Assembly: GCA_016860985.1 (NCBI GenBank)
Contig: BOKM01000001.1
Location: forward strand, 719,462 to 783,461
Origin: Patescibacteria group bacterium
Lineage (GTDB): Bacteria; Patescibacteriota; Dojkabacteria; GCA-002793355
Length of the DNA: 64,000 nt
Direction: 5' to 3'
Numbering within the stretch: position 1 is the first letter of the stretch; every line of letters starts with the position of its first letter. The position numbers and the translations under genes were made by a program. The notes below the pieces were generated by a model that searched no databases, was not told the DNA's origin, and saw only the letters and a list, made by a program, of their open reading frames with translations. This document shows, piece by piece, positions 46,035 through 64,000 of the stretch.

Positions 46035-46036
46035 TT

Positions 46037-47620: not shown

Positions 47621-48066
47621 ATAAGAATTTTTTATCTTTTAGAGTGTTTTTCTCTAGTCACAGTGTAATAACTATAGGCTAATGTGCGCTGTCATATCAT
47701 AGCGTTGACTCGCTTTATTGAGCGGAATTTCAAGTATTGTTGCACGACGTCAAATAACCGCTATTGAACAAAAAAGGTGTTCGCCAAGTAAGTTCGTTAG
47801 GTTAGAGAAAAATGAGATTTTCTATCTTACTGCATTGATATGGAACAACACGTGGTAAGTATTATGATATTTAAGTGGAAAACCAGAGGAGAAAAATTTG
47901 GAAAACATTGAAAATATAGTGCAAAGCAGGATAAAAAAACGTATCATAAAAGAGTCATTGCGTGTGGCGTTGAAATGATTGGTTATATCAACAGAAATTA
48001 GAAGCATACTATTGTTACTTGTATAGTCGAAAAAGGAATGTACAAAGAAGGTGTTATAATGTACCA

Positions 48067-48693
48067 ATGATTGGGTATCTAAAAGGTAAAGTCCTTCAAA
48101 AGTTTAAAACAGGCAAAAATGTTGTAACGCTCACGCTGCAAGTGACCCCGGAGGGAGAATATGGAATTGGATACGCAGTGCTAGTAACAGAAATGTGTGG
48201 GTCTACTATTCCTGTGCAGTCATTCACCGAACTTTGGACGTATGCGGTTCATTCTGAGAATGATTCTTACCTCATTGGTTTTTCAACTCCAGATAAAATG
48301 AATATATTCTTGGATTTACTAAGTGTTTCTGGGGTCGGTCCGAGAACTGCAATGCTCATTGTTGATTCTGTTGGCGTAGAGCAGATACGGCATGCGCTTG
48401 TGGCCAAAGATGTAAATGTATTTTCGAAGGTTCCAGGAATCGGCCATAAAACTGCTGCAAAAATTGTTGTCGAGCTTTCAGGTCGCGGAGTTGACGTTGC
48501 AAACATGCTGTACCAGTCAAATGTTCAGAACGATTTATCCTCCAACTATGCAGATGTGTATGCAACCTTGCTCAAGTTAGGTTATTCCACGAGTGCGGCC
48601 AAAGAGGCCTTGCAAAGGGCTGCACCGTTACTTCAGGCGAACGAAAACAAAACGACGGCAGAAAAAGTAACGTTAATTCTTGCTAATTCATAA
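48067..48693 (+). CDS. ruvA: Holliday junction DNA helicase subunit RuvA
   Basis: MIGYLKGKV...GIGYAV for the OB domain and two HhH motifs (GVGPRTA, GIGHKTAAKI). Start at ATG 48067. Confidence 0.85.
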   Translation: MIGYLKGKVLQKFKTGKNVVTLTLQVTPEGEYGIGYAVLVTEMCGSTIPVQSFTELWTYAVHSENDSYLIGFSTPDKMNIFLDLLSVSGVGPRTAMLIVDSVGVEQIRHALVAKDVNVFSKVPGIGHKTAAKIVVELSGRGVDVANMLYQSNVQNDLSSNYADVYATLLKLGYSTSAAKEALQRAAPLLQANENKTTAEKVTLILANS

Positions 48694-48695
48694 GT

Positions 48696-49757: not shown

Positions 49758-49763
49758 TAACAA

Positions 49764-50753
49764 ATGGTTAAAGAACAACGCCGAATAACGAAAGGAGCGG
49801 AGCGAGTAGCCACAGTTTCAGACTCACTAGATTTATTACGAAGCAAAGATTCTCCTCTAACGAAGATAAGTGATCAACTTTCACAAATTCGGGCTAATTT
49901 TCAGGTTTTGCTATCTCCTGGGGATAAGCAATTTAAAGATTTGCCCAAGCGCGTAAGGCTTATGATTGTGTCGTTTCTCGTCCCTGCGTTGTTTGCAGCA
50001 AGTAAATTACTGCTCTTTACCTCTACAACGTCACCCCTTATCTGGAGCTTAATCGCCTTGGCGCTTGCAATTTTAACGTATGGAGGGATGTATTGGGGGG
50101 TAAAAGGTCAAATTCGTCGTGATTCTCTAACGTCTGTTTTGCCTTTGCCATCGCTTTTTGTCTTTGCAAATGTTCTCTTTTTAAGCACTGTTTTTGTGGG
50201 CGAAGTTAATAGGCTCTATTTATGGGGGCTTTTCTCTCTTGCGCTGATTACCTTTATGATTTTATTATATGTGCTTTCACTCGCTGTAAATATATTAAAT
50301 GTTACATTGTTTTACACCATACCACTCAGCAGACTAGGCGAGTCAGTTGCCTACTTATCTAGCCTTATTACGCTGTTTTTGTTCACCTATGCTGCAGGCG
50401 CAACCGCAGTTTCTCTGTTTGCAACCTCGTTTTGGCTCTGGTTATTACTTCTTGGTGTTATTGCGTTTTTATTCATCTTTATACTCACATATTCGTTGTG
50501 GCGTTATTTCATCGCAAGCGCCCAAGCGGTCGGACCTTTTTCGCTAGGGATTTCTGTGCTTTTGTTCGTTGTTTGGGGCTTTTTCGTCTTCGGATTGCCC
50601 CATATTTGGCTTAGTGCTGTTATGACTGGGCTTTCTGCCTACATTGTGTACGGATTTGTTATTCACAAAGAACAAAACACATTAAAAAGCGTGGTTAATA
50701 TCGAATATATGGTACTTTTGCTGCTTGCGTTTTTCGTCATCCTAGGTGCATAG
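49764..50753 (+). CDS. hypothetical polytopic membrane protein
   Basis: About 8 TM helices, directly after ruvB. Confidence 0.4.
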   Translation: MVKEQRRITKGAERVATVSDSLDLLRSKDSPLTKISDQLSQIRANFQVLLSPGDKQFKDLPKRVRLMIVSFLVPALFAASKLLLFTSTTSPLIWSLIALALAILTYGGMYWGVKGQIRRDSLTSVLPLPSLFVFANVLFLSTVFVGEVNRLYLWGLFSLALITFMILLYVLSLAVNILNVTLFYTIPLSRLGESVAYLSSLITLFLFTYAAGATAVSLFATSFWLWLLLLGVIAFLFIFILTYSLWRYFIASAQAVGPFSLGISVLLFVVWGFFVFGLPHIWLSAVMTGLSAYIVYGFVIHKEQNTLKSVVNIEYMVLLLLAFFVILGA

Positions 50754-51251
50754 GGTAGAGGGGTGTGGATAAGTATAGACCTATAGTGTACATATCCCAT
50801 AGTAATCAGTCTGGCTATTTGTATCTTTTATACAAATATATGGAGGAGTGGCTATTCCTTCGATGTTCTTTCAGAAATATAAGGAAATTCCAAAAGAAAA
50901 GAGTGATAATTTTTCATATTCTACTCTAAATGTTGTGCCTTACTTCATATCGGTGCATGCAGTGCTAAAGTGCCAAAATTGTAAGCGCTTTTAGATTGAG
51001 TATAATCTCCCTTATACGCAGTCGAAACCTGTCAAGGTGGGAGTAGTGCCCTATTTACGGTTGTTACAAACAAAAAACTTATTTCAAAATATTTTCGCAG
51101 TAATTCTCTATTATGTTTATTAAATTTGTAATTTTTTCTGAATTTCGACGGAAAGTCGCCTTTTCTTCGGTTCTCCCTCTCGCGGCCGGCTGTTTATCTT
51201 TTGACTCCCCTGCCTCACACTTTGGCTGAATCTGCGCTATACTGTGAAGGA

Positions 51252-52382
51252 ATGAGAAAAATATCCATACAACAGCTGATGGAAGGCGATAAAACGCCCA
51301 AACTTGAGCGACAAAACGAGTACCTGTTATCTCTTTATAACGACGATTACAGCGACGAAACCGTTTATAATTACAATAGGGATCTATCTTTCTTTGCAGA
51401 ATATCTTTTACTTTCTAATACATCTTTTGAAAATATCTCAAAGTTAACGATTACGTATTACAAAGGATGGCTTAAGGAGAGAAATCATATTCACCAGAAG
51501 GTTCACGAACAAGAAATGGCAAAACAAGATGGTGATGGTAAGAAAAAGCCCCAGAATACCGTTGAAACGCGTAAAAACGCCTCAAAATCAAACGATGTAG
51601 CTTCAGTTGATCAAAAGGACGTTAAAAAACTGCAAAAAGGAGGCTTTGTGAAGAATAACAACCCAGAACAGCTTGATGCACTTTCTATTAATAGAATTCT
51701 AGTTGCTCTTAGAAATTATCTTCGATTTTTAGTCGAGTATGATTATCCAGCTCCAATTGCACCCGACGCAGTCACCTTGGTTCGACTTGCAAAAAAGAAA
51801 CCTCAGGTTCCAAGCCTAGATGAAGTAGTCGCTTTGGTAGAAGCTCCAACACATTACGAGGCTGTTTCTATCATTGCCCTGAGAAACAGAGCAGCGCTTG
51901 AACTTTTACTTGCTACGGGTATGCGTATATCAGAAGTAGTGAGTATAAACAGAGATCAAATAAACGGCGAGGGAAAACTTTTGGTTAGGGGTAAAGGGCG
52001 CAAAGATAGGTTTGTGTATCTAACGCCACGAGCAGTGGGGCACGTTCAGGAATACCTGAAAAATAGAGTAGACTCCTACCCTGCTCTTTTTTTACCAACG
52101 AGTGGAAGGCGCTTAAAGGGCAATGATCCCCGAATTTCAACCAATTATCTGCAAATGAAAATCGCCTATTATCGACGGATGCTTGAGATCGTTGTTCCAA
52201 TTAGCGCGCATACAATTCGTCATGCATACGCAACGTATTTGGTCGAAAATGGCGCCAATCCTGCAGCAATTCAGATCTTGCTTGGGCACGAAAGCCTTCA
52301 AACAACGACAAAGTATGTACATGCAAGCGATAAATATGCAGAGGAAACACACAAAGAGTTTCATCCAGCAATGGATGAGTAG
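51252..52382 (+). CDS. tyrosine site-specific recombinase, XerC/XerD-like, with lysine-rich insertion in the N-terminal domain
   Basis: GMRISEVVSINRDQI...VRGKGRKDRFVYL...HTIRHAYATYLVENGANPAAIQILLGHESLQTTTKYVH gives the R..HxxR..Y catalytic signature. Start MRKISIQQ at 51252 follows GAAGGA. Confidence 0.8.
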   Translation: MRKISIQQLMEGDKTPKLERQNEYLLSLYNDDYSDETVYNYNRDLSFFAEYLLLSNTSFENISKLTITYYKGWLKERNHIHQKVHEQEMAKQDGDGKKKPQNTVETRKNASKSNDVASVDQKDVKKLQKGGFVKNNNPEQLDALSINRILVALRNYLRFLVEYDYPAPIAPDAVTLVRLAKKKPQVPSLDEVVALVEAPTHYEAVSIIALRNRAALELLLATGMRISEVVSINRDQINGEGKLLVRGKGRKDRFVYLTPRAVGHVQEYLKNRVDSYPALFLPTSGRRLKGNDPRISTNYLQMKIAYYRRMLEIVVPISAHTIRHAYATYLVENGANPAAIQILLGHESLQTTTKYVHASDKYAEETHKEFHPAMDE

Positions 52383-52430
52383 ACTCTATATGATGTTACT
52401 GTAATATCGCCGGCCAGCAAACTGTTGTTG

Positions 52431-53435
52431 TTAGTTGCGACTTACGGGCGTAGGAACGTATTCTCCTAAATACCCAAGGGTTATCTTTATCTTTTCTGCG
52501 TTCTTAATTCTTTCGACATAACCGAATGTCGTATTGCTTTCGTATTCGTTTCTGTGAGGTGTAATGTAGGGGGTAATACCTTTTTCAAGGTAAAGCTCAG
52601 TTAAACTATACTTTGGTTCCTCCGATGGAACTGTCCGATCTGGAATGGGAGTAAACGTTCCTTTAAAGTTCAATTGTTCGGGCACAAAAACAATGAGTTC
52701 TTGAAACCCTGTTGACCACAATGAAGTATCGACATCTTCTGGTGCGTCGTATTCAGCTGGGAAACTTGGTTCTTCCTGTTCGGAATATATCTCAACAACC
52801 ATTTTGCCATATGGATTGCTTGTTTTCTCAGTAGTCGTTTTGAGTTTGTAATTTGGACTGCCTGTAAATTGAATAAATACTTCTTCGTCTTTTAAATCTC
52901 GCCCGTGGTACACATAGACCGTTCTCATGTTTTTGGCTGGAAAAATAACTTCGAGTTCTTGGGCTTTATTGCCTTTTGTAACTGTCCATTTGGAGCGGAG
53001 TTCTTCTTGTGCTACGTTTGAATATCTACCTTCTGGTGTGGTTACGGTAAGATAGAGGTTTCGTGCAGCAACTGAAATTCCACTAAGTAAAGCAATAACT
53101 ACTGCACCTTGGAGAAGTTTTACCCCGAGTTGACGGTAACCAACGGTAGCTCCAAGAAGTGGGAGTTCGATTAGCTTTGGCACATTAAAATCTTTGACCA
53201 GATCTTGTACCTTTCCTAACGTTTCGAGAATAGTTTTTGCCTCTGCAAAATTGATTGTACTTGAGGCCGATTTTTCAGTTTTCTCCGTGATATGTGCGAG
53301 AATTTCTTCTCGTAAACCAGTGTAAGTCGCCTCTGGAAGATACACTTTGAAAAGGTCAAAATCTTCTAGGTATTTAGAGAATAGACGCGCAGCATCTTTC
53401 TCGATTTTGGGGCTTTGGAAAATGTTTTTTTCCAT
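52431..53435 (-). CDS. DUF1700-like N-terminal domain / DUF4097-like beta-rich C-terminal domain membrane protein (PadR operon partner)
   Basis: N-terminus LPEATYTGLREEILAHITEK...ILETLGKVQDLVKDF has a DUF1700-like pattern, followed by a TM helix and a beta-rich C-terminus. Begins 3 nt after the padR stop. Confidence 0.45.
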   Translation of the reverse strand: MEKNIFQSPKIEKDAARLFSKYLEDFDLFKVYLPEATYTGLREEILAHITEKTEKSASSTINFAEAKTILETLGKVQDLVKDFNVPKLIELPLLGATVGYRQLGVKLLQGAVVIALLSGISVAARNLYLTVTTPEGRYSNVAQEELRSKWTVTKGNKAQELEVIFPAKNMRTVYVYHGRDLKDEEVFIQFTGSPNYKLKTTTEKTSNPYGKMVVEIYSEQEEPSFPAEYDAPEDVDTSLWSTGFQELIVFVPEQLNFKGTFTPIPDRTVPSEEPKYSLTELYLEKGITPYITPHRNEYESNTTFGYVERIKNAEKIKITLGYLGEYVPTPVSRN

Positions 53436-53437
53436 TT

Positions 53438-53767
53438 TTATGTATATTTATGTGAGATTATTGTATTTACAATGGCAACGTATTCTTTCCATTGTTTTAT
53501 GCTTTCTGTAAGCATTTGTGTTCCCTTTTCTGTAATTTCATAGTATTTTCGTGGCCTTCCCTGTTCTGATTCTTCCCACGTTGCAACCAAGTAGCCATCA
53601 GTTCGCAGCCGGATTAGGATTGGATATAACGTACCCTCTGTGATAATCATTCCGAGTACTTTGAGTTGCTCGACAAGATCATAACCATATTTACGCTCCT
53701 TTTGAACAAGGGCCAAGATGCAGAGCTCTAGTGTCCCCTTTTTTAATTGTGTATCTAATTCGGCCAT
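53438..53767 (-). CDS. PadR family transcriptional regulator
   Basis: KGTLELCILALVQKERKYGYDLVEQL...EGTLYPILIRLRTDGYLVATWEE...PRKYYEITEKG is a canonical PadR wHTH. Confidence 0.85.
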   Translation of the reverse strand: MAELDTQLKKGTLELCILALVQKERKYGYDLVEQLKVLGMIITEGTLYPILIRLRTDGYLVATWEESEQGRPRKYYEITEKGTQMLTESIKQWKEYVAIVNTIISHKYT

Positions 53768-53793
53768 ACCTTATATTTTGTATTACAAGGTAT

Positions 53794-53822
53794 ATTGTAC
53801 TGCACTATCCTCTCGATGTCAA
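53794..53822 (-). promoter_or_regulatory. sigma70 consensus promoter TTGACA -17- TACAAT driving the padR operon
   Basis: On the minus strand, TTGACA (53817-53822) and TACAAT (53794-53799) are 17 nt apart, about 27 nt upstream of the padR ATG. Confidence 0.55.
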
Positions 53823-53953
53823 ATCAATTGACGATAATGCACAAAATAGTAAGGTTATTTATCTGTTTATAAAGATTCATGATTCAAGAGAGTACCGAGA
53901 AACAAACTGAATACTCTACTCTCTCGAACTGCGTGCCGATAACGATGCTCCAA

Positions 53954-55003
53954 TTAGAAAAGGTCATTGAAGAGGTAGTCCCCTTTTTGGCAGATTTGTG
54001 TTTTAAACAATGGAATGCTGACCATTTCGGGCTCACTCTCTCGTATTGAGGTAACTACCGATTCCCAAGTCGATTCTGCATTAAAAACTACAGGAATTTG
54101 ATATTTTGATTGAAGTTCTGCAAGTTGTTCGTCCGTTTGTGCGACCATAATTCTAACTGAATCCGAACCTTTCATTATTTCTGAATTGTAGTTCGTCGCT
54201 GTCATTATGACCTGAATGGGAGTTAACCATAAGGGCAGTCTACCGTTTGCCTCAATAATGCTAGCAATAATTCGTTCTGCCCCACCGAGGGTAAAGTCTA
54301 CAAGTATGCTCGCTTTGTTGCCAATCTCAACGTTAAATAATTCTAGCGCAGAAAGTTCAATTATTTTTCCGTTCGGAAGGGAAATGTTGAAGTCGAGTGC
54401 AAGCACAGCCTCCTCTTCAGAAGACAAGTTAATTTCGAATTTCTCTCCCCAGGCTTTTTCTAACTCTTCCCACGAAATAAGGGAATTGTCTTTTACATGA
54501 CATTTAACTGAGAACTTAACATTCCAATCGTTTTCGAAGCTACGGATACACTTCATCAACCCAATTACGTCGCTAAGCGCCTGATCTTTGTTTATTGTGA
54601 AAGAGTGAACATCAGTAACCTGAAATGCCGTCTGGCGTGTAAACGGTGTAAGTCTTGATTTTTCTTCTCCTCTAAACAGTATTCCTTGTTCTACAAATGT
54701 AAGTGGGAATTGTTCATTCGGTATGTCTTTGTCTTTGAGCGTCTTAAAGTAATAATGGTGAAATGTGTGTCTCATTGAACCCTCTGGGGATATTGAAATT
54801 GCTTCTTTCGAATGAGTAAGGTTGTCTTGGATTAAGGGGCTGTCTACGTAAATGGGATTATTAAAGTATTTGAATACTGCGCCAATACAGTATCTCTTTA
54901 TCAAATCAACGGTTGTTTTACCAAAAGGAGTAAATTTTAATGAAAGAAAATCGTCGACCGCATAGGGCTCTGCAAGAGTATTAAGAATATTTAGACTATT
55001 CAT
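53954..55003 (-). CDS. truncated threonyl-tRNA synthetase paralog (class II catalytic core plus partial anticodon-binding domain; zinc-site Cys lost)
   Basis: It aligns by eye with this window's own ThrS. PLTFVEQGILFRGEEKSRLTPFTRQTAFQVTDVHSFTINKDQA corresponds to [42 protein letters not shown] (motif 2). LPLWLTPIQVIMTA corresponds to FPVWLHPEQVVIIPI. The ThrS MTCPHH zinc-ligand segment reads MRHTFHH here. There is no N-terminal editing or TGS region, and the protein is 349 aa. Confidence 0.6.
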   Translation of the reverse strand: MNSLNILNTLAEPYAVDDFLSLKFTPFGKTTVDLIKRYCIGAVFKYFNNPIYVDSPLIQDNLTHSKEAISISPEGSMRHTFHHYYFKTLKDKDIPNEQFPLTFVEQGILFRGEEKSRLTPFTRQTAFQVTDVHSFTINKDQALSDVIGLMKCIRSFENDWNVKFSVKCHVKDNSLISWEELEKAWGEKFEINLSSEEEAVLALDFNISLPNGKIIELSALELFNVEIGNKASILVDFTLGGAERIIASIIEANGRLPLWLTPIQVIMTATNYNSEIMKGSDSVRIMVAQTDEQLAELQSKYQIPVVFNAESTWESVVTSIRESEPEMVSIPLFKTQICQKGDYLFNDLF

Positions 55004-56181
55004 TGTTTTATAATTTCTTTAATTAAATTTACACAAGACTCAATTTGTTCCTTGGTATTGTAATAATGTGGAGAAATTCTTAGGATGCTTTCATCACCTA
55101 TCTCCCGCGCAGCTAAAACAATCCTGTAATTATGTAATTTTGCAACGATCTCTGAAGGTTTTTTCCCTTCGATTTTGAAAGAGACGATTGATGTTCTCTT
55201 CGCAAGATCATTGACTCCTAATATTGATACTCCCGGTATATCGTTAAGTAGTTGAATTGTTAACGCAATTAATTCTTTGTTCTTCTTTGCAACTTCGCTA
55301 ATACCAACTCGATTCAACAATTCAATCGCCTTGAGTAGGCCCACAACTCCCGTATAATTTCTAAAACCGTTTTCAAATTTATATGGTCCAGGCTTTACAG
55401 TATAATCATCATTTGAAAAATTTAGCTTAACTTGAACCCCATCTGATATTGCCTCTAAAATTCTAACATCCATACCGTAGTAATTAATTAGTTTTTGTGT
55501 TTCTTTGCTAATATACAGAATCCCAATGCCTGGAGGAGCACAGAGCCATTTGTATCCAGAAAAAACCATATAATCGCAGCCAAGAGCTTTCACGTTAACA
55601 GGCAAGCAACCAACTGTTTGTGCAGCGTCGACGAGCACGGTGTAGCTATATTTTTTTGCAAGAAGTGCTATGGATTCTACGTCGAGGACTGTTCCAAGGT
55701 TGTAAAGTGCGTGCGCAATCGCAACTATACCCCCTGGTTTTTCTTTCATGAGCAGCTCAATCTTTTGAAGGTCTGGGTTGCCAAATTCGTCAGAGCCGGT
55801 GATTTGTAAATCAAGATTTTTCTCTTTTGCAATTTTTAGCCAAGGCAAGAAGTTAGCCACATGTTCCTTTGATGATTCTCTCAGGATAATTCTGTCATTT
55901 TCTTTCCAAGAATAACCTTCAGCGATGATATTGATTCCATGTGTAATACTTTGGGTAAAAATGACTTCCTCAGGGGAACACCCAATTAGTCCTGCAACTG
56001 CATTACGCGTTTCTTCAAAATACGCTTCCTTTTTTACAAAAGGTGAGTCGGGACCATTATGTGAGTATTCTTGCAAGTAAGCATGAGTATCATTTAATAT
56101 GCTTTCAGGAACCGGCCCGAATGCTGCGTTATTTAAATAGTTCGTCGTATTATTTATCGCAAAATCATCTGCTTCTATCAT
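55000..56181 (-). CDS. class V (fold type I) PLP-dependent aminotransferase/desulfurase-family enzyme lacking the desulfurase catalytic Cys
   Basis: The PLP-lysine region is FSGYKWLCAPPGIG. The C-terminal region is SufS/IscS-like (...ISPHYYNTKEQIESCVNLI), but the active-site loop reads AAREIGDES with no Cys. ATGA overlap with the downstream ThrRS-like gene. Confidence 0.65.
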   Translation of the reverse strand: MIEADDFAINNTTNYLNNAAFGPVPESILNDTHAYLQEYSHNGPDSPFVKKEAYFEETRNAVAGLIGCSPEEVIFTQSITHGINIIAEGYSWKENDRIILRESSKEHVANFLPWLKIAKEKNLDLQITGSDEFGNPDLQKIELLMKEKPGGIVAIAHALYNLGTVLDVESIALLAKKYSYTVLVDAAQTVGCLPVNVKALGCDYMVFSGYKWLCAPPGIGILYISKETQKLINYYGMDVRILEAISDGVQVKLNFSNDDYTVKPGPYKFENGFRNYTGVVGLLKAIELLNRVGISEVAKKNKELIALTIQLLNDIPGVSILGVNDLAKRTSIVSFKIEGKKPSEIVAKLHNYRIVLAAREIGDESILRISPHYYNTKEQIESCVNLIKEIIKQ

Positions 56182-56251
56182 TAACTAGTAAAAAAAGTTA
56201 GTATATTGCCTCGATTTCCGGTATTCTCTTCTCTTTTCATTTTGCTGTCAA

Positions 56252-56278
56252 GCCTAAGTAGTACGTTACTGCTTAGGC
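56252..56278. promoter_or_regulatory. 27-bp imperfect palindrome (candidate operator) in the divergent intergenic region
   Basis: GCCTAAGTAGTAC g TTACTGCTTAGGC: the two 13-nt arms match at 11 of 13 positions. It overlaps the predicted -35 region of the kinase promoter. Confidence 0.5.
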
Positions 56279-56293
56279 AATGCCGAATTAGAA

Positions 56294-56302
56294 TGTTATA
56301 AT
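56294..56302 (+). promoter_or_regulatory. extended -10 element TGtTATAAT for the kinase gene
   Basis: TGTTATAAT lies 26 nt upstream of the ATG at 56329. Confidence 0.4.
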
Positions 56303-56328
56303 ACGCGCATAATTCTACTCATACGTAC

Positions 56329-57246
56329 ATGACTACATTGGAGCCAGAAACAATTGAAAAAAATGAACTCGCAATAAAAAGGATTCAAGAAATTGTTGGT
56401 GCTGATTATGCTGTTAAGCCCCTGGATGGCGGCTTTTCTGGAGCCGGTAAGTTTACAGCAGAGAGCCCTAGTGGTTCGGAAAAGTTGTTCGTCAAATATA
56501 GTGAAGTAGATAACAGCCTGGCTCCACCGAGAAAATATGTTGATTGGCTAAATCAAGAAATTGATGTTATGGCGTCGATGGGTGAACAACCTTTCGTACC
56601 AAGTGTAATAAAGGCTTACAAGGGTGACGAATATAGCGTACTCGCAATTAATCAACTGGAGTGGCCCAATAAACAAATAACATGGACGATGGAAAATGTT
56701 CAAAAGGTTTTGAAGGTAGTTCGGCAACTAAAAGATGTCCGCACCTCAGACAAACCAGCAATACCTCCTCCAGATGCTGGTGAGCAAAATCCCTGGAAAG
56801 ATGTATTTGAACAAATTAAGTCATCGGATCCTTCCCCATATGCTTCAAGAGCTTGGTTAGAGCAAATTAGAACTCGAGTTTTGGCTCTTGACCCAACCGA
56901 GCTTCTTACTCCAAAAGATTTTGTTCACGGTGATTTAAGGAGCGATAATATTCGTCTTGGAGACGGGTTGCCTACCGTACTTGTTGACTGGACTTTTGCT
57001 GGAATGGGGAACCATGATTTAGATATCGCGTATTGGTTGCCCAGTGTGAAAATGGAGGGTGGACCAGAACCGTGGGAAATCATGCCAAATAGACCTGACC
57101 TTGCCATGATGGTTGTAGGTTACTTCTTTGCACGAGCGATGTTACCGGAAATACCTGATGCTCCAATGGTACGAACGATTCAAAGAAAACAACTAATAGC
57201 GGCACTCCCTTGGCTCGCTCACGAGTTGAATGTTCCGCTGCAATAA
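56329..57246 (+). CDS. APH-like phosphotransferase (aminoglycoside / homoserine-kinase-II / AmgK fold) kinase
   Basis: Catalytic loop VHGDLRSDNIRL, and VDWTFAGMGNHDLDIAYWL, corresponding to the DWE..G.G....D motif. Confidence 0.75.
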   Translation: MTTLEPETIEKNELAIKRIQEIVGADYAVKPLDGGFSGAGKFTAESPSGSEKLFVKYSEVDNSLAPPRKYVDWLNQEIDVMASMGEQPFVPSVIKAYKGDEYSVLAINQLEWPNKQITWTMENVQKVLKVVRQLKDVRTSDKPAIPPPDAGEQNPWKDVFEQIKSSDPSPYASRAWLEQIRTRVLALDPTELLTPKDFVHGDLRSDNIRLGDGLPTVLVDWTFAGMGNHDLDIAYWLPSVKMEGGPEPWEIMPNRPDLAMMVVGYFFARAMLPEIPDAPMVRTIQRKQLIAALPWLAHELNVPLQ

Positions 57247-57248
57247 CC

Positions 57249-58244
57249 CTAGTGTGTAAGAATTGTTATTTTCGCAGAATTTTCAATCGCTTTTACTTCG
57301 CACGTGCCTCCGATTGGAATTGTTGCATTCGGGGTTGTATGCCCAAAATCAACATTTGCTACAATCGGAATGTTACTCAGCTCTGGGTGAGATAGGAAAA
57401 TCTGCTCAAGCAATTTAGGTGTTATTCCTGAAATATTATGGAATCGACCAATTACAATTGCCTTGATTTCTGATGAGTAGGATCTATTCATAAACGATTC
57501 AAAAAGTCCTGCGAATGACTGCGCATGTATATCACTAGTCGCTTCGAGAAAAAGAATCGCATTGTGTAATGGTCTTTCGTACTCAGTTCCGGCGTTTAAT
57601 ACATAAGTAGAAGTATTTCCACCATATATCGTTCCGGTTGCTTTCCCCTCACGAATAACCCAATACCCCTCATTTCTGATATAAGAACGATTCTCCTGGT
57701 CTTTGAACCAAGTGTCGTCACTCCATTCTTCCGAGGGGAGTAACTCATATGGAAGTTTCTCGCTGCAACATTTAATAAAATATTCTAGAGAGTAATTAAA
57801 CCCATATTTCATTCCCCAGCTTGTGAAGTGTGGTCCTAAATAGGTAATTAGTCCGGTCTTTGCGTAGATACCGTTAAGGATTGAAGTAATATCAGAATAG
57901 CCACAAATGACCTTTGGATTTGCCGCAATCAAATCGTAATCTAAATATTTTAATAGTTGATTTGAAGTATAGCCTCCCAAAACGGTAAGTATGCCATCAA
58001 CGGTTGAGTCCGAAAAAGCAGCATGTATGTCATCTACGCGAGATTTTATTGAGGAGGAGTCAAAAGAATCCCTTTCATATACATGCTCCCCAAAAGATAT
58101 TGTAAAGCCAGTATCTTCGAGTCGTTGCTGTGCCAATGGAATGATATCTTGCTTGATAAATGCGAGCGAGCGTGCAGGGGCAATGATTCTCAAGTGGGCA
58201 AGCGGATTCAATCGCTTAGCAATCAAAATTTTTCCCAAAAACAA
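57249..58244 (-). CDS. S66 family peptidase (LD-carboxypeptidase LdcA / microcin C immunity MccF-like)
   Basis: LRIIAPARS...TVLGGYTSNQLL...VICGYSDITSI (Ser nucleophile in GYSD)...VDFGHTTPN (His). Confidence 0.8.
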   Translation of the reverse strand: MFLGKILIAKRLNPLAHLRIIAPARSLAFIKQDIIPLAQQRLEDTGFTISFGEHVYERDSFDSSSIKSRVDDIHAAFSDSTVDGILTVLGGYTSNQLLKYLDYDLIAANPKVICGYSDITSILNGIYAKTGLITYLGPHFTSWGMKYGFNYSLEYFIKCCSEKLPYELLPSEEWSDDTWFKDQENRSYIRNEGYWVIREGKATGTIYGGNTSTYVLNAGTEYERPLHNAILFLEATSDIHAQSFAGLFESFMNRSYSSEIKAIVIGRFHNISGITPKLLEQIFLSHPELSNIPIVANVDFGHTTPNATIPIGGTCEVKAIENSAKITILTH

Positions 58245-58318
58245 ATAATCTCAGTACAAGAAATCATGCACTATTATACTATGCCTTATTGTCGCTACTC
58301 AAGAAGCATTTAATATCA

Positions 58319-58327
58319 TGCTATAAT
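58319..58327 (+). promoter_or_regulatory. extended -10 element TGcTATAAT for the AlaRS-like/methyltransferase gene
   Basis: TGCTATAAT lies 27 nt upstream of the ATG at 58354. Confidence 0.4.
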
Positions 58328-58353
58328 TACGTTCAAAGTTAGGCAACAACTAC

Positions 58354-60276
58354 ATGCAAACAAAAGAAATAAATAGCTATGGGTTTCAAAATTTTGATAT
58401 TGATGCACCAAACGTAGCTAGTGAATCAAGACACTATGTAACCGAATTGCTTGACAAGTTTAGAAACTATTTCACAAAACTCGGTTACTTTGACCAGCCA
58501 CCTGCTCCAATAAGTTCGGGGATCGATCCTACCGTGCGTCTTATTGGCTCTGGTATTTCGACATTAAAAAGATTTATACCTCCCTTTGGGAATGATAGCC
58601 TTCCTTATCCAGGTGCATTTATTCTTCAACGTGCCGTCAGGACTCGAAATCGTTCAATACTTATGGACGATGAGAAAGTACCAAACTGGGGGTCATTGTT
58701 CACTAATATTGTTTGGATTACTTCTCCAAAACGGTTAAAAGAAGCAACTGAAGAAACATTTCATTTCTTTCTTGATGAATTAGGGATTAAAAAAGAAAAT
58801 TTGATGATTCGAGTCAAGAGTAGCGACTACCAGAATCTATGGATGTATGCGGAAAAGTTTGTAGAGAATATCGAAATCGATTCAAAACCGGATAAATATT
58901 ACACTCATCAACTCGGCACGGATATTCTTTATGCAAATAGTTATAATCTAGCGTTGAAGGACCCTGACCCAAGTTCAAAAAATTTCCAAGATATCGGCAA
59001 TATTATTTTACACAGAGACAAGAATGGCAAAGAGGTGCTAGTAGAAATCGGTTTTGGGGATAGTACAATTTTGCGAGCAATGCGAGGAGGGCATGTTATT
59101 GACTGGCGCTTTGTTCCGGGTTTGATGACAGTTGATCCGAACATACGTTTGAAGATGGCAGATGAATTAATAACTTCTGTTGAATTAGCACGTGAAGGCC
59201 TAGTACCCTCTTCAAAGGATAATAGGACAAAGCTATTTAAAGCATACTTGCACGCGCTTCTTCGTCACCAAGCGATTACTGGGATTTCAATGGCGAAACT
59301 TGAGGATATCATAAACGAATATGAGCGTCTTGAGTTCCCTAATAGCGTGCTAAATGCAGGAAGTCTTGTTACAGGTTATTTGAACATGTTAATGAAGAAG
59401 GTTCAGATGAAAAAATTGAGTGAACTCTCTCCAGATGAACTAAAATTGAAGGAAATTTTTGATAGATATCCTGTTCTTGGAAATTATCAAATAGAAGTAA
59501 AACAAGCACATATGAAACTTTCGGGTGAAAAAACAACCGAGGCACTAATACCTGTAATTGAGAGATTTAATACGTCAATAATCGTTGAAAAATATAAAGA
59601 TGCTATTGAGAATGTAGGAATATGGGAATCTGAAAGTATCGTTGCAAACGCCTATTTAAACAAAGATGATAGGATTCTAGAGCTTGGATGCGGTACAGGG
59701 AGATTCACGTTTGGTCTATACAAACTTGGGTTCCATCATATTACGGGGATAGATTTAGCAAAGGAGTTGATTATGGTCGCGAAAGATTATGCAAAAAAGC
59801 ATAACCTCCGCGTCGCATTTTCTTACCAAGACGCTCGTAAGCTTCAGTTCCCTAATGAATCATTTGACGGTATCGTTTTTCCCTTTAATGGCCTAATGAC
59901 CATTCCACTTGAAGAAAACAGAAAGCAGGTACTTTCCGAAATAGCGCGAGTGCTTAGACCTTCTGGTTATTTCATATTTACTACTCACGACAGATTAATC
60001 AATAAAAATTATTCAGAATTTTGGAAAAAGCAAAGAAGCAACTTCCGGAGTGGAAAACGGGAACTGGGGCAATACGAATATGGTGATTTACCATTAAAAG
60101 GTGCGGAAGATGACGCTTTTATTCATATCCCTAGTATGAGCGAGGTCCGAAGTTTATTGAAATCGTATGGCTTCAAAATTGTCTATACTCGAATGCGAAG
60201 CAAAATTGCGACCGAATCAGAAAATACTATGAAATTCTCCGCGGACTGCCGTTTTTGGGTTGTACAGAAATTGTAA
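58354..60276 (+). CDS. fusion protein: N-terminal alanyl-tRNA-synthetase-catalytic-core-like domain + C-terminal class I SAM-dependent methyltransferase
   Basis: The N-terminus (LLDKFRNYFTKLGYFDQPPAPISSGIDPTVRLIGSGISTLKRFI...ILQRAVRTRN...EETFHFFLDELGIKKENLMIRVKSSD) parallels E. coli AlaRS (FLDFFHSKGHQVV...DPTLLFTNAGMNQFKDVF...SQRCVRAGG...AIQFAWELLT...ERLWVTVYESD). The C-terminus has MTase motif I ILELGCGTGRFTFGL, motif II-III (FDGIVFPFNGLMTI) and LRPSGYFIFT. Confidence 0.5.
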   Translation: MQTKEINSYGFQNFDIDAPNVASESRHYVTELLDKFRNYFTKLGYFDQPPAPISSGIDPTVRLIGSGISTLKRFIPPFGNDSLPYPGAFILQRAVRTRNRSILMDDEKVPNWGSLFTNIVWITSPKRLKEATEETFHFFLDELGIKKENLMIRVKSSDYQNLWMYAEKFVENIEIDSKPDKYYTHQLGTDILYANSYNLALKDPDPSSKNFQDIGNIILHRDKNGKEVLVEIGFGDSTILRAMRGGHVIDWRFVPGLMTVDPNIRLKMADELITSVELAREGLVPSSKDNRTKLFKAYLHALLRHQAITGISMAKLEDIINEYERLEFPNSVLNAGSLVTGYLNMLMKKVQMKKLSELSPDELKLKEIFDRYPVLGNYQIEVKQAHMKLSGEKTTEALIPVIERFNTSIIVEKYKDAIENVGIWESESIVANAYLNKDDRILELGCGTGRFTFGLYKLGFHHITGIDLAKELIMVAKDYAKKHNLRVAFSYQDARKLQFPNESFDGIVFPFNGLMTIPLEENRKQVLSEIARVLRPSGYFIFTTHDRLINKNYSEFWKKQRSNFRSGKRELGQYEYGDLPLKGAEDDAFIHIPSMSEVRSLLKSYGFKIVYTRMRSKIATESENTMKFSADCRFWVVQKL

Positions 60277-60339
60277 TCATTCTTCAAGATTCATACTTGC
60301 TAGAAATTTCTGACTAGTATTTATAAATTGTTAGTTATG

Positions 60340-63264
60340 CTAACTCGCCAACCCCGTCACTTCGTCTCCTTCTGCAATTCGGAATACTTTTACTCCATAG
60401 GTTTGTCTGTTTGCAAGTACCGGAATGCTTTGGAAGTTGGTTTTGATTACTTGCCCCTGTTTGGAGATAAGTATTACCTCTTTGTCTTCGGTTCTTTCGG
60501 CATCAGGGAATATTCGGGCTACCCGCAGGTTACCTGTTTTGCCTCCAATCTTTGCAGCAAAGATGCCTGTGCCACCTCTGTGTTGTTGCTTAAACTCAGA
60601 CAATGCGGTGCATTTACCAAAACCTTGTGCAGACACAGTAAGGAGTAAGTCGGTCTCGCTAGAGACAACGTCGAAGGAGATAACTTCGTCATCTTTCTTC
60701 ATGCTAATGCCTTTTACGCCCATTGTGTTTCGGCCACTTTCTTTCACTTCTTTTTCGGCAAAGCGGATAGATTTTCCTTTTTGTGTGACAAGAATAAGCT
60801 CGTCTTTTGCTGTAGTAAGTTGGGCCTGTACCAATCGGTCCCCTTCTTTAAGAATTATGGATACGAGACCGTTCTTTCGGATGTTCTCATATTCATCGAG
60901 TGCGGTTTTCTTTACGATTCCGTTGGCAGTTGCCATTGCAATATATTTGCCATCAGCTCGGCTTTGTAACGAGAGCAATGAGCTGACCACTGTATTTGGA
61001 GTGATTTGCAATAAGTTCACAATTGGAAGACCCTTTGCAATTTTCTTTGCTTCTGGAATCTCATAGCCACGTAGTTTAAAGACTTTACCATCGGACATAA
61101 ATACAAGGAGCCAGTCGTGAGTATTACACAATAACGCATGGTTAACGTAATCATTTTCTTTGAGTTTTGCACCGATGCTTCCTTTTCCGCCTCTGTGCTG
61201 TAAGCGGTATTCTTCTGGAGATACTCGCTTGATATAGCCGGACTTGCTGATGGTTACAAAGGTTTGTTCGTTTGCTACCAAATCTTCTTCTTGTGGTTCG
61301 TCGACGTCACCTTTGTAGACTTTTGTACGTCGCTTATCTGCGTATTTCTCTTTGACTTCGAGTAGGTCGGTTTTTACTAACTCAAGAATTTTAATCTCTT
61401 CTGCGAGGTAAGACTCGTGATGTTTGATATTCTCAAGAAGACCGTTGTATTCATCTTGAATCTTTTGTCGTTCGAGTGCTGCCAACTTTCTAAGTTGCAT
61501 ATCGAGAATCGCTTGTGCCTGAACATCGGTTAGGTCAAAGCGTTCCATAAGCCCAATTTTTGCTTCGTCTGCATTCTTGGCTGCACGAATGAGTTTGATT
61601 ACTTCTTCAATAAAGTCGAGCGCTTTGAGTAAACCTTCTAAAATGTGAGCGTCGTATTTGTTTCTTGCGAGTTCGAATTCCAGTTTACGGATAATAACGG
61701 TCATTCGATGATCAAGATACAATTCCAAGATTCGCTTGAGGTTGAGTGTACGAGGCTGATCATCAACCAACGCAATCATGTTTGAGTTAAAGTTCATTTG
61801 CAGTGGCGTGTATTTGAACAGCTTCTGCATAATGATCTGTGGTGAGAAGCCAGACTTTACTTCGATGTAAATACGAATTTCGTTCTTCGAGGATTCGTCG
61901 CGGAGATCTTTTACGCCTTCAATCTTTCCGTCGTGGATTAGCTGTGCAATTTGCTCCATAAGTACAGCTTTGTTTACTTGGAATGGAATCTCAGTAATAA
62001 TAATTGCTTGTTTTCCACTGTTTGTTTCTTCGACAGTCATGACTCCGCGCATCTTTACCCGACCATTGCCGGTTTCGTACATGCTCAGGATATCTTTCTG
62101 GTTATAAATAACGCCACCGGTTGGGAAGTCAGGACCTTTAACGAATTGCATTAACTCTTGCGTGGTAACCTGCGAAATGAACTTTGGGTACAACGAAAGT
62201 ATCGGTGCTCCGTCAAATCCCTCTGCAAGTTTGGCTAAACTCTCTGTGTTTAACCCTAATTCGGCTGCGTTTTCAACTAATGTTCCTTCTTTGATAAAGA
62301 GTTCGAGCGCTGCGACTTTTTCTTTGAACAATGGGTCATTTGGCGCAATGTAATTGTCCCAGTACGTAAATGGCTCTGAGCTTAACAATTGAGGTACTCG
62401 TGTGTTTTGTTCTCTAAAGCTTCGAAGTAAATTGTATGCAGATTTTCCACCCCAGGTATTCCCTTGGTCGATCATGGAGATAAGCGCATCGATAAGTTCT
62501 CCGAGGTTATGTGGTGGAATTTTTGTCGCCATACCTACGGCAATACCACTCGTTCCGTTTGCAAGTAGGTTTGGAAACGCTGCAGGTAAAGCTACAGGTT
62601 CGTTTCGGGTTCCGTCGTAGTTGACACGGTATAGTACAGTTCCTTTGTCGATATCTTTTATTAATTCAACAGCTATTTTTGAATATTTTGCTTCGGTATA
62701 ACGCATGCTTGCTGCAACATCTCCGTCGATTGAACCGAAGTTCCCTTGGCCATGAACCAACGGATATCGCATGGTAAAAGGCTGTACCATGTTTACGAGA
62801 GTTTGATAGATTGCTTGGTCACCGTGTGGATGATAGTTACCCATTGCTTCACCAACGATTTTTGCGGATTTACGGGTTGCTCCAGTTGGCCAAAGGGTTA
62901 AATCTTTCATTGCAACGGTTACACGTCGCTGCGAGGGTTTAACGCCGTCTTTTACATCTGGAATGGCTCGATCAACAATTACGCTCATGGCGTAGTCGAT
63001 AAAGTCTTTCTTTAATTCGTCGGTGATTGATACAGATACTGTTTCTCCCGCTTTGAAGCCTGCACCGGTCGTGAGCATGTCACTAATGCCTTCGTTTGAT
63101 TCTTCGCCAATTTCAAGGTCACCAGTGGCAGTTTTATAGTCGTCTGACTCGAGCGAGTCTTGAGGTGCACTTTCTAAAGAGGTCGGCTCAGCAGCAGATT
63201 CTTTTATCTGTTCATCAATGAGGTTCTTTACGTCTTCTGGAATTGGTGTTTTGTCTTTTGCCAT
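60340..63264 (-). CDS. gyrA: DNA gyrase subunit A with acidic N-terminal extension
   Basis: DYAMSVIVDRAIPDVKDGVKPSQRRV, active-site AASMRYTEAK, and C-terminal beta-pinwheel repeats. A roughly 70-aa acidic low-complexity N-terminus precedes the conserved start. Confidence 0.9.
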   Translation of the reverse strand: MAKDKTPIPEDVKNLIDEQIKESAAEPTSLESAPQDSLESDDYKTATGDLEIGEESNEGISDMLTTGAGFKAGETVSVSITDELKKDFIDYAMSVIVDRAIPDVKDGVKPSQRRVTVAMKDLTLWPTGATRKSAKIVGEAMGNYHPHGDQAIYQTLVNMVQPFTMRYPLVHGQGNFGSIDGDVAASMRYTEAKYSKIAVELIKDIDKGTVLYRVNYDGTRNEPVALPAAFPNLLANGTSGIAVGMATKIPPHNLGELIDALISMIDQGNTWGGKSAYNLLRSFREQNTRVPQLLSSEPFTYWDNYIAPNDPLFKEKVAALELFIKEGTLVENAAELGLNTESLAKLAEGFDGAPILSLYPKFISQVTTQELMQFVKGPDFPTGGVIYNQKDILSMYETGNGRVKMRGVMTVEETNSGKQAIIITEIPFQVNKAVLMEQIAQLIHDGKIEGVKDLRDESSKNEIRIYIEVKSGFSPQIIMQKLFKYTPLQMNFNSNMIALVDDQPRTLNLKRILELYLDHRMTVIIRKLEFELARNKYDAHILEGLLKALDFIEEVIKLIRAAKNADEAKIGLMERFDLTDVQAQAILDMQLRKLAALERQKIQDEYNGLLENIKHHESYLAEEIKILELVKTDLLEVKEKYADKRRTKVYKGDVDEPQEEDLVANEQTFVTISKSGYIKRVSPEEYRLQHRGGKGSIGAKLKENDYVNHALLCNTHDWLLVFMSDGKVFKLRGYEIPEAKKIAKGLPIVNLLQITPNTVVSSLLSLQSRADGKYIAMATANGIVKKTALDEYENIRKNGLVSIILKEGDRLVQAQLTTAKDELILVTQKGKSIRFAEKEVKESGRNTMGVKGISMKKDDEVISFDVVSSETDLLLTVSAQGFGKCTALSEFKQQHRGGTGIFAAKIGGKTGNLRVARIFPDAERTEDKEVILISKQGQVIKTNFQSIPVLANRQTYGVKVFRIAEGDEVTGLAS

Positions 63265-63408
63265 AGTAACAATGTCGATTTGAGTTTTTCTTGCGTTTAA
63301 CGCGAATTTTATTACTCCTTTAGAGGAGAATTCCCTCTAGTGAGAAAGCTGTTATGCTGACCCGTGAGTATCGCTATATTATACGAAAAAATGGGGCGAG
63401 TCAATCAT

Positions 63409-63900
63409 TTAAGCGCAGATTTTTTCTACCCAGAATTGTGTGATGTGACCCAAGGCGAAGGACTGTAAGTCGGCGCTATTTTTTGAAACCCACCGTATGG
63501 TTTCAAAATCATTCTGATTCCAACGTAATGGCTCATTATGCCAATCCACAAGGTACATCTGAGCGAATTCTGATTGAGTGTCATACTGAAAGAAGGCTTT
63601 TCCTATTAGCTGCCAAGTTGTAGGCAGAAATCCGAATTCTTCTTTTACTCCTCGCTGCAATGCAGTTTCGTAAGTTTCTCCCGTAACTACATGTTCGCCT
63701 GCAAACATGAATTTCCCTGCATCGCCTTCTTTGTTGATGGGGCGTTTGGTAAGTAGAACTTGGTCATGTTGCCGGTCGTACAGCGTGAAGTGTGTGCATC
63801 GATGAAACAAAGAGCTATTGCGGTGGCACTCTTCTCTGGTTGCGGTTCCGATAACAATATCATCGCTATCAACGACATCCACAATTTCAGATGCCGGCAT
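63409..63900 (-). CDS. NUDIX hydrolase
   Basis: Nudix box GEHVVTGETYETALQRGVKEEFGF. Confidence 0.8.
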   Translation of the reverse strand: MPASEIVDVVDSDDIVIGTATREECHRNSSLFHRCTHFTLYDRQHDQVLLTKRPINKEGDAGKFMFAGEHVVTGETYETALQRGVKEEFGFLPTTWQLIGKAFFQYDTQSEFAQMYLVDWHNEPLRWNQNDFETIRWVSKNSADLQSFALGHITQFWVEKICA

Positions 63901-63906
63901 ATTTAT

Positions 63907-64000
63907 CTACTTAAACGAAATCATTTCGACTTCGAAAATCAGTGTTGCGTTTGGTGGAATAATTCCGCCTGCTCCTGCTGACCCGTAGCCTAAGGATGCT
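63907..64000 (-). CDS. FKBP-type peptidyl-prolyl cis-trans isomerase, C-terminal end (partial at window edge)
   Basis: The minus-strand frame ends ...GYGSAGAGGIIPPNATLIFEVEMISFK-stop, the typical FKBP C-terminus. It is absent from the ORF track because the start lies beyond the window. Confidence 0.6.
   Translation of the reverse strand, partial: ASLGYGSAGAGGIIPPNATLIFEVEMISFK

Follow-up and report, generated by a model that had tools for sequence, protein, structure and literature searches.

A strain-variable cassette of aminoacyl-tRNA synthetase paralogs in a Patescibacteria genome, possibly serving an aminoacylated antimetabolite

Results

A five-gene cassette that is exchanged as a block

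We analysed a 64,000-nucleotide stretch of DNA, here called the window, from the genome of a Patescibacteria group bacterium of the Dojkabacteria lineage (assembly GCA_016860985.1, contig BOKM01000001.1). Exactly five genes, at 53805-60340, form a strain-variable cassette within it, as delimited by comparison with a sibling strain and by GC content. From left to right the cassette encodes a protein resembling the core of threonyl-tRNA synthetase (ThrRS-like) and a pyridoxal phosphate (PLP) enzyme, both read leftward; a small-molecule kinase, read rightward; a serine peptidase of family S66, read leftward; and an alanyl-tRNA synthetase-like (AlaRS-like) domain fused to a methyltransferase, read rightward. 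The open reading frame (ORF) list contains all five ORFs at the coordinates and on the strands that an earlier note on this DNA had given.

The sibling strain (GCA_049325555.1, plus a matching Logan contig; loci L034 and L035) shares both flanks and lacks the cassette. Window positions 38696-53804 are 97.2% identical and positions 60341-64000 are 98.9% identical to the sibling contigs, whereas the interval between the PadR and GyrA genes measures 6.5 kb (53805-60340, five genes) in the window and 1.68 kb in the sibling. A single ORF of 515 amino acids replaces the five genes there (L034 15225-16772, minus strand; also in L035); it has no Pfam or NCBIfam match and no family was recognised for it. 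The GC content of the cassette is 38.8% against 41.5% in the rest of the window, below that of all 237 windows of equal size. The 97-99% identical flanks, the exact five-gene swap and the low GC content indicate that the adjacency is not fortuitous and that the cassette is accessory and exchanged as a block. Together with the recurrence of sub-sets of these genes in unrelated genomes (see below), they essentially exclude a chance neighbourhood and uphold the suggestion that the five genes belong together. Because the sibling strain lives without it, the cassette is dispensable, and the different accessory ORF found there indicates that the PadR/GyrA junction acts as a hot spot at which accessory genes replace one another. 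We tentatively take the cassette to be a horizontally exchanged unit of specialised metabolism.

Left of the cassette we noticed a XerC/D-like tyrosine recombinase (51201-52382, plus strand), a 334-amino-acid protein with a single hydrophobic stretch (52431-53435, minus strand) and the PadR regulator (53438-53767, minus strand). The cassette-less sibling has all three as well; hence they belong to the flank and not to the cargo.

A ThrRS-core paralog translationally coupled to a PLP enzyme without the catalytic-Cys loop

The first gene of the cassette (53954..55003, minus strand) encodes 349 amino acids, with a catalytic domain and a degenerate anticodon-binding-like tail. It begins at the catalytic core, the N-terminal editing domains being absent. 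Profile scores are low: 25.9 bits for Pfam tRNA-synt_2b, under the gathering score of 29.3, and 49 bits (E 4e-13) for the ThrRS model TIGR00418, missing the equivalog cutoff of 383.65. The PDB sequence matches are essentially all ThrRS chains, with one unrelated chain at E 0.046, and the first 49 Foldseek matches of the structure model are ThrRS. This model is poor (predicted local distance difference test, pLDDT, 58), and residue assignments consequently rest on sequence alignment. Pfam did not detect HGTP_anticodon in the protein; its C-terminal 90 residues merely resemble the start of that domain. The predicted product is thus best described as a genuine but very divergent ThrRS-core paralog, and its family is rare: a search of 5.8 billion proteins found four, and one more locus came from a metagenome.

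The canonical ThrRS of the genome (30533-32314, minus strand, 593 amino acids, 638 bits for TIGR00418) is encoded 22 kb from the paralog. The two are 22% identical, and this pair gives the cleanest residue mapping of the altered zinc site. By pairwise BLAST, the Cys of the zinc-binding Cys/His/His triad is replaced by His82, the second ligand, a His, is retained as His133, and the third, also a His, is replaced by Val235; hidden Markov model alignments differ on this last position between Val235 and the adjacent Asp236. His82 falls inside an invariant RHTFHH motif. Motif 2 (FRGE, with R111 and E113) and motif 3 (GGAER, with R244) are kept, and are invariant in four homologues. The loss of the threonine-binding zinc Cys, as noted earlier, is borne out by this alignment, and the protein does match class II synthetase profiles, although below their cutoffs.

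A stop/start overlap, ATGA at 55000-55003 ('caATGAatag'), joins this gene to the PLP gene and gives the translational coupling that the earlier note had read there. The PLP enzyme (55000..56181, minus strand, 393 amino acids) is a SufS-like member of class V, matching Aminotran_5 at E 5e-67 and the SufS model at E 2e-63 (214 bits, missing the cutoff of 475), with E values of 1e-11 to 5e-15 for the SepCysS models. In three of three homologues a deletion of nine residues stands where the 'GHHCA' loop with the catalytic Cys would be, so that the description of the enzyme as Cys-less holds. The PLP lysine (SGYKW) and the carboxylate-binding Arg368 are retained. The deleted loop, together with the retained lysine and Arg368, suggests an enzyme that would act on an alpha-amino acid and not as a desulfurase. 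A cysteine desulfurase of the SufS/IscS/NifS kind was ruled out by the missing loop and the sub-cutoff SufS score.

The kinase gene (56329..57246, plus strand) encodes 305 amino acids of the APH fold (Pfam APH, E 1e-10), and the catalytic motif HGDLRSDN is intact in both translation and alignment. Its NCBIfam matches are limited to APH(3'), GntI and, weakly, type II homoserine kinase, with no specific subfamily, in agreement with its earlier placement in the fold that includes type II homoserine kinase. Kinase orthologues adjoin the AlaRS-like gene in two of the loci from other genomes described below, L007 (54% identity) and L010 (35% identity).

The trio of ThrRS-like protein, kinase and PLP enzyme had been likened to tRNA-dependent amino-acid conversion of the SepRS/SepCysS or PSTK/SepSecS style, in which the ThrRS-like protein would charge a tRNA, the kinase phosphorylate the hydroxy-aminoacyl ester and the PLP enzyme rewrite it. 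The trio is indeed present, and tRNA-Thr(UGU) genes lie near the kinase of L010 and near a unit of APH kinase and PurD-like ligase in L028. The enzymes themselves fit this scheme poorly: the kinase has the APH fold and is not PSTK, the PLP enzyme resembles SufS minus the Cys loop (E 1e-11 for SepCysS against 2e-63 for SufS), and HGTP_anticodon was not detected in the ThrRS-like tail. The genome has its normal, canonical ThrRS, and one locus (L033) has the PLP and ThrRS-like genes without a kinase. Nor is there a tRNA gene in or beside the cassette. With permissive thresholds, Rfam detected no riboswitch, T-box or tRNA gene at 53300-60500, and its sole match in the whole window is tRNA-Leu at 45171-45258, again with no riboswitch or T-box. 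Finally, the sibling strain without the cassette indicates that it does not belong to core translation. We regard such a conversion as very improbable. A kinase step followed by a PLP step that makes the amino acid is possible.

An S66 peptidase of the MccF-like clade

The S66 gene (57249..58244, minus strand) encodes 331 amino acids from a TTG start; annotated starts vary among copies of the window locus, giving 325-331 amino acids. Both Pfam domains of the S66 family were found (E 2e-31 and 3.5e-22), as had been predicted. The catalytic Ser and His lie in the motifs GYSD and GHTTP, which align with Bacillus anthracis BA_5613, and the protein contains a Trp-rich loop, EEWSDDTWF. It matches BA_5613, a protein labelled 'MccF-like', and Listeria Lmo1638 at E 1e-97 (330 bits), and the characterised MccF proteins at 4e-36 (B. 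anthracis) and 4e-33 (E. coli), compared with E 5e-19 for LdcA (87 bits against a cutoff of 378). By these comparisons the peptidase stands far nearer to the MccF type than to LdcA. MccF cleaves aminoacyl-nucleotides, and LdcA gives no protection against them (PMC8323819).

Housekeeping proteins of the window are >90% identical to proteins of Patescibacteria metagenome-assembled genomes (MAGs). The match of the S66 protein to Firmicute proteins is stronger than expected for many window housekeeping genes, and is consistent with horizontal spread of the BA_5613/Lmo1638 subclade.

The earlier note had also offered a mundane explanation, peptidoglycan recycling, with the kinase and the peptidase as AmgK and LdcA and the aaRS (aminoacyl-tRNA synthetase) paralogs as neighbours that have no part in it. 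A broader form of it would include peptidoglycan remodelling, or aaRS paralogs that attach amino acids to stem peptides. S66 is an LD-carboxypeptidase family, and chemistry of the AlaRS, GlyRS (glycyl-tRNA synthetase) and AsnA types could in principle build or amidate cross-bridges. The E values to BA_5613 and MccF (1e-97 and about 1e-33 to 1e-36) set against that to LdcA speak against it, however. In the NCBIfam scan the kinase did not match AmgK, and the genes listed within 10 kb on either side include no MurU-like or nucleotidyltransferase gene. Murein recycling also does not fit the adjacency of S66 and AlaRS-like genes across phyla, nor their HIT, HD, radical S-adenosylmethionine (SAM), P450 and PurD-like neighbours, nor the dispensability of the cassette. 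We give this explanation hardly any credence.

A truncated AlaRS-like domain fused to a methyltransferase

The last gene of the cassette (58354-60276, plus strand) encodes a protein of 640 amino acids. Residues 1 to about 375 (58354..59478) form a truncated AlaRS-like domain, with an aminoacylation fold and a helical subdomain that resembles a tRNA-recognition domain, as judged from a family profile and a structure model. Residues ~425-640 (59626..60276) form a class I SAM-dependent methyltransferase domain (profiles, E ~1e-22). As a single sequence the AlaRS-like domain barely matches Pfam tRNA-synt_2c (E 0.03, 13 bits), and one relative, P0007, scores 30.4 bits, equal to the gathering score. 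A profile of 57 family members matches Aquifex AlaRS (1riq) at E 2e-20 over residues 5-349. The structure model is good (pLDDT 86.8, predicted TM score 0.87), and Foldseek returned AlaRS catalytic fragments first (E 4e-15, TM 0.67), followed by other class II enzymes at 1e-5 to 1e-6. Family profile and Foldseek together support the fusion of an AlaRS-core-like domain with a methyltransferase that the earlier note had proposed. In L010/L008 the AlaRS-like and methyltransferase parts are separate, overlapping genes, which makes the window protein a Rosetta-stone fusion.

The domain ends at about residue 375 and lacks the editing and C-Ala domains. At the position of the motif-3 Arg, 45 of the 57 members have Thr and none has Arg. 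The equivalent of E. coli AlaRS Asp235, which binds the amino group of alanine, is Glu in 52 members and Gln in five; Asp is found in none. The motif-2 R96, the adenine-stacking F116 and Lys72 are invariant in the 57, Asn216 is conserved in 56, and Asp213 is conserved as well.

An exhaustive profile search found 228 cluster representatives of this family at E<=1e-30 and 675 at E<=1e-3, the weaker of which may be canonical AlaRS. Nearly all members are stand-alone proteins of 320-400 amino acids. NCBIfam and PADLOC returned nothing for the family, and Pfam only weak tRNA-synt_2c matches.

Sub-sets of the cassette recur in unrelated genomes

Loci were retrieved by the AlaRS-like domain alone, 24 in total; a scan of one genome per species yielded 19 loci. 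These 19 come from Staskawicz-, Colwell-, Parcu- and Saccharibacteria, Paceibacterota, proteobacterial MAGs, a complete Calothrix plasmid (AP018229) and a Firmicute. An S66 gene adjoins the AlaRS-like gene in 22 of the 24 loci, and the S66 proteins of 21 other loci are 42-52% identical to that of the window. Loci without an adjacent S66 gene are L007 and, with contigs that end there, L010/L008. The idea that S66 lies outside the conserved core, which came from the S66-less L007, was overturned by the 19-genome scan.

Fifteen loci have, mostly directly after the S66 gene, a paralog of the asparaginyl-tRNA synthetase (AsnRS) core without the anticodon-binding domain. This AsnRS-like partner retains motif 2 (MRGE) and motif 3 (GLGIER), and matches the AsnRS and AsnA models, both under cutoff. 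A methyltransferase gene stands immediately upstream of the AlaRS-like gene, often overlapping it, in at least 10 other loci. The PLP gene is directly upstream of the ThrRS-like gene, adjacent or overlapping, in all five loci with sequence there (the window, L007, L008, L009 and L033). The AlaRS-like, methyltransferase, kinase, PLP and ThrRS-like genes are kept together in L007, with different flanks, and in L010/L008. Conservation of the neighbourhood, which the earlier note had offered as a check, therefore holds for sub-sets that recur elsewhere and not for the whole five-gene set, which is not conserved elsewhere. What meets in the window is two overlapping modules: AlaRS-like, methyltransferase and S66, and PLP and ThrRS-like with or without the kinase. 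L027 couples the AlaRS-like, S66 and AsnRS-like genes with a different ThrRS paralog (429 amino acids, 190 bits, under cutoff).

Two full-length GlyRS paralogs bracket the AlaRS-like/S66/AsnRS-like module in each of two unrelated loci. In L014, from a Staskawiczbacteria MAG, they lie at 1872-3272 and 8870-10273 and are 66.5% identical; in L031, from a Coprosoma genome, they lie at 4437-5858 and 8773-10143 and are 63.5% identical. A duplicated aaRS is the classic signature of a resistant copy or of a copy that serves supply. The duplicates suggest that the module is linked either to GlyRS, as its target, or to Gly-tRNA, as its supply. Single extra GlyRS genes are found in L011, L026 and L033.

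Other recurrent neighbours are an HD phosphohydrolase (three loci), Amidohydro_2 proteins (four loci) and HAD phosphatases, and further neighbours include a uridine-phosphorylase/AMP-nucleosidase-like protein, a paralog of prolyl-tRNA synthetase, an aspartoacylase-like protein, a cytochrome P450 and an S9 hydrolase. Divergent operons in L027 (5743-9928, minus strand) and L028 (6960-9918, minus strand) encode an APH kinase, a PurD-like ligase and an unknown protein of 190 amino acids. The PurD-like protein scores 279 bits against the cutoff of 288 for phosphoribosylamine-glycine ligase; the ThrRS paralog is part of the operon in L027 only.

Several loci carry tRNA genes close to these units. 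A tRNA-Thr(UGU) gene lies at L010 633-705, 33 nucleotides upstream of the kinase gene, and another at L028 6214-6288, near the APH/PurD-like unit. In L017 (8184-8387) a tRNA-Ala and a tRNA-Ser gene stand directly ahead of an operon of HD, methyltransferase and AlaRS-like genes. These tRNA genes could be integration sites or functional partners. L007 also carries, at 316-1860 (minus strand) and ~1.5 kb from its copy of the cluster, genes for elongation factor P and a lysyl-tRNA synthetase paralog of the EpmA/GenX type (282 bits against a cutoff of 287); this pair is probably an unrelated neighbour. In L015, a Parcubacteria GW2011 locus, the AsnRS-like gene (2792-3816) is split into 148 and 197 amino acids by a frameshift or sequencing error.

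Four proteobacterial loci (L020-L023, ~7040-9955) are organised differently. The AsnRS-like gene is absent; a radical SAM protein, a small kinase of the AAA_18 family and a 270-amino-acid HIT protein precede the AlaRS-like gene, and a SAM-synthetase fragment follows the S66 gene. The radical SAM protein matches the viperin model weakly (54 bits, cutoff 180).

The radical SAM, kinase and HIT genes of these four loci, beside AlaRS-like and S66 genes, are among the observations that would suit a module of defence or antagonism, making a translation-blocking aminoacyl-nucleotide upon phage infection or host contact with the S66 peptidase as antidote. The patchy distribution across phyla would suit it too, as would the position of the cassette at a hot spot that holds a different unknown gene in the sibling strain. 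When the five cassette proteins and four from sister loci were scanned with PADLOC, however, the matches were only generic, to SspA/DndA for the PLP fold and to mad2 for the methyltransferase fold, and no sensor or effector domains were recognised. A tblastn search with the AlaRS-like domain found no match in phage and plasmid collections (the plasmid set not containing AP018229), and a scan of viral contigs found no homologue. Such a module is in our judgement improbable.

Two divergent control regions

Two intergenic regions separate the divergent units of the cassette. The first, of 147 bp (56182..56328), sets the kinase gene apart from the operon of the PLP and ThrRS-like genes and contains a 12-nucleotide inverted repeat, GCCTAAGTAGTA-cgt-TACTGCTTAGGC, at 56252-56278, which overlaps both -35-like boxes, and a TG-extended -10 element at 56274-56302 ahead of the kinase gene. 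The second, of 109 bp (58245..58353), lies between the S66 and AlaRS-like-methyltransferase genes and has mirrored -10 boxes, ATTATA and TGCTATAAT, at 58273-58327. The palindromic and extended -10 promoter regions described earlier could thus be located: the repeat, the TG-extended -10 and the mirrored boxes are there. Their frequency is not above chance, with 20 promoter-like sites region-wide against 18.8 expected from shuffled sequence. Their placement alone is suggestive.

Discussion

The recurrence of one core gene pair, AlaRS-like and S66, across many phyla suggests an undescribed pathway that makes or neutralises a compound of the aminoacyl-nucleotide type. For the window we tentatively favour, at a little short of an even chance, a cassette that makes an aminoacylated antimetabolite and protects the cell from it. 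Its probable nature, an aminoacyl-nucleoside or -nucleotide resembling an aminoacyl-adenylate, is suggested by neighbours that handle nucleotides, by the HIT genes and by the GlyRS duplicates. Of the possibilities raised in the earlier note, a locus for production of, or immunity to, aminoacyl-nucleotides is the one that fits the comparative evidence, namely the S66 adjacency in 22 of 24 loci, the nucleotide-handling neighbours, the GlyRS duplicates and the likeness of the AlaRS-like domain to AcmF of the ascamycin pathway (discussed below).

The five proteins may be arranged in a sequence of steps. The APH-fold kinase would phosphorylate a hydroxyl group, and the Cys-less class V PLP enzyme would then reshape an alpha-amino acid by elimination or replacement. 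The ThrRS-like core, with its adenylation motifs kept and its metal site remodelled, may activate the reshaped amino acid as an adenylate, a role that the AsnRS-like protein would take elsewhere. The AlaRS-like domain is not expected to activate alanine; it could act as an AcmF-like transferase that moves the aminoacyl group from aminoacyl-tRNA or adenylate onto an acceptor amine. The fused methyltransferase would methylate the same molecule, and the MccF-clade S66 peptidase would cleave the aminoacyl-amide bond, for self-immunity or uncapping.

Several observations weigh against a producer cassette of this kind. The cassette has no exporter, precursor peptide or clear nucleoside-building enzyme, and provisionally no exporter was seen among the annotated neighbours of the family loci, of which selected genes only were run through Pfam and NCBIfam. 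L007 lacks S66, and L033 has the PLP and ThrRS-like genes with no AlaRS-like gene, S66 gene or kinase. The methyltransferases of different loci share 27% identity over the SAM-binding core, and pairwise comparison of kinases from different loci shows no similarity, so that orthology is not clear for either. A literature search on the function of BA_5613 and Lmo1638 found no published substrate. Lastly, Asn216 and an acidic residue at position 213 persist in the AlaRS-like family, and the domain may consequently still use ATP.

An island of immunity or detoxification only would account for part of the same evidence. Its S66 peptidase would hydrolyse foreign aminoacyl-nucleotide or Trojan-horse peptide antibiotics, its AlaRS-like/methyltransferase protein would block an alpha-amino group, as acetylation by MccE/RimL does, and its aaRS cores would be decoys or insensitive binders. 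Immunity factors of the MccF and HIT types are known, often from stand-alone genes (PMC8323819), no gene for an exporter or for building a scaffold is among the annotated neighbours, and the cassette, an accessory one, varies between strains. Yet five to seven enzymes, among them an adenylation-competent aaRS core, a PLP enzyme, a kinase, a P450, a radical SAM protein and a PurD-like ligase, exceed known immunity needs. Duplicated full-length GlyRS genes suggest a producer guarding its own target, and translational coupling of the PLP and ThrRS-like genes is as found for successive biosynthetic steps. Immunity alone seems to us rather unlikely.

The antimetabolite cassette that we favour has a bolder form, which we consider quite doubtful: a widespread toxin assembly derived wholly from aaRS, in which an adenylating core, a non-adenylating AlaRS transferase and a methyltransferase do without non-ribosomal peptide synthetase, ThiF-type or ribosomal peptide machinery and a MccF-clade protein is the antidote, carried by ultra-small Patescibacteria as a swappable cassette against hosts, competitors or phages.

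Neither the AlaRS-like family nor this combination of genes was described in anything that literature searches returned, the AcmF work alone being relevant. If an antimetabolite cassette is what we have described, the very recent discovery of AcmF-type enzymes would extend to a large family across many phyla, and the combination of AlaRS-like, S66, second aaRS core and methyltransferase genes would serve as a genome-mining signature for aaRS-directed antimetabolites and resistance to them. The tiny genomes of Patescibacteria are usually thought to lack pathways of specialised metabolism or antagonism, and this would be among few candidates for such a pathway in the group. Even if our guess at the product is wrong, the cassette offers three repurposed families that can be tested: a ThrRS core whose metal site is remodelled, a Cys-less SufS-like PLP enzyme and an AlaRS fold without the motif-3 Arg.

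Stand-alone class II aaRS cores without full tRNA-recognition modules, such as AsnA, EpmA/PoxA, HisZ and the amino acid:carrier-protein ligases, serve ligation or regulation. None of these is known to be derived from AlaRS or ThrRS or linked to S66, and there is no carrier protein near the cassette. For dehydrophos, we take DhpH-N to be the PLP domain and DhpI the O-methyltransferase. A PLP step, aminoacyl-tRNA-dependent capping by DhpH-C and DhpK, and methylation lead there to a Trojan-horse peptide, a logic that the cassette would share (PMC12945691). The dehydrophos transferases, however, have the GNAT/Fem fold and are not derived from aaRS, and genes of phosphonate chemistry are absent here.

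Albomycin has a similar parts list (the seryl-tRNA synthetase AbmK, the ligase AbmF, the PLP enzymes AbmD/H, the methyltransferase AbmI and a radical SAM protein), and in it an aaRS-type enzyme supplies an activated amino acid for coupling to a nucleoside (PMC8323819). AbmK, in contrast, is a full, functional seryl-tRNA synthetase, and siderophore genes are absent from our locus. With microcin C immunity the cassette shares an S66 peptidase nearer to MccF than to LdcA, and some sister loci have HIT genes, MccH being a HIT protein that gives immunity to compounds of the microcin C type (PMC8323819). No MccA peptide, MccB ThiF-type adenylyltransferase or MccC exporter is found among the called genes of cassette and flanks, and the nearest solved relatives of the S66 peptidase, BA_5613 and Lmo1638, differ from MccF in having no published substrate.

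By analogy, the AcmD/E/F group of the ascamycin pathway, from Streptomyces sp. 80H647 / JCM9888, is the closest precedent. AcmF (GenBank KJ817374) is a truncated AlaRS-like protein of 370 amino acids, with aminoacylation and tRNA-recognition domains only, without the residues that activate ATP and alanine and with a D232E change (PMC12945691; PMC4257720). It uses R93, W100, F104, E216, Q219 and the essential E232, and moves alanine from Ala-tRNA(Ala) to a nucleoside, at the sulfamoyl nitrogen; encoded on its flanks are AcmD, an extra, resistant AlaRS, and AcmE, a hydrolase that removes the alanine (PMC12945691; PMC4257720). The counterparts in the window protein would be R96, W112-x3-F116, D213, N216 and E231, and we infer from published residue numbers that the spacing from the Asn to the Glu is similarly short in the two proteins. 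The likeness to AcmF is known by published description, and AcmF has Gln219 where the window family has Asn (N216). We sought the AcmF residue pattern among 150 matches of the AlaRS-like family and found none, and a large protein search with the 57-member profile gave nine proteins and no named relative. The cassette also differs from the ascamycin pathway in having no sulfate-activation, sulfatase or halogenase genes, in its hydrolase, an S66 peptidase where AcmE is an alpha/beta-hydrolase, and in an AlaRS-like part to which a methyltransferase is fused or coupled and which has a second aaRS core as its partner. What the two share is the truncated AlaRS-like architecture, the lost activation residues, Glu in place of the amino-binding Asp, a hydrolase gene beside the AlaRS-like gene, and an extra full-length aaRS, AcmD in the one and the GlyRS duplicates of L014 and L031 in the other. 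We classify the cassette with translation-directed specialised metabolism built on aaRS paralogs.

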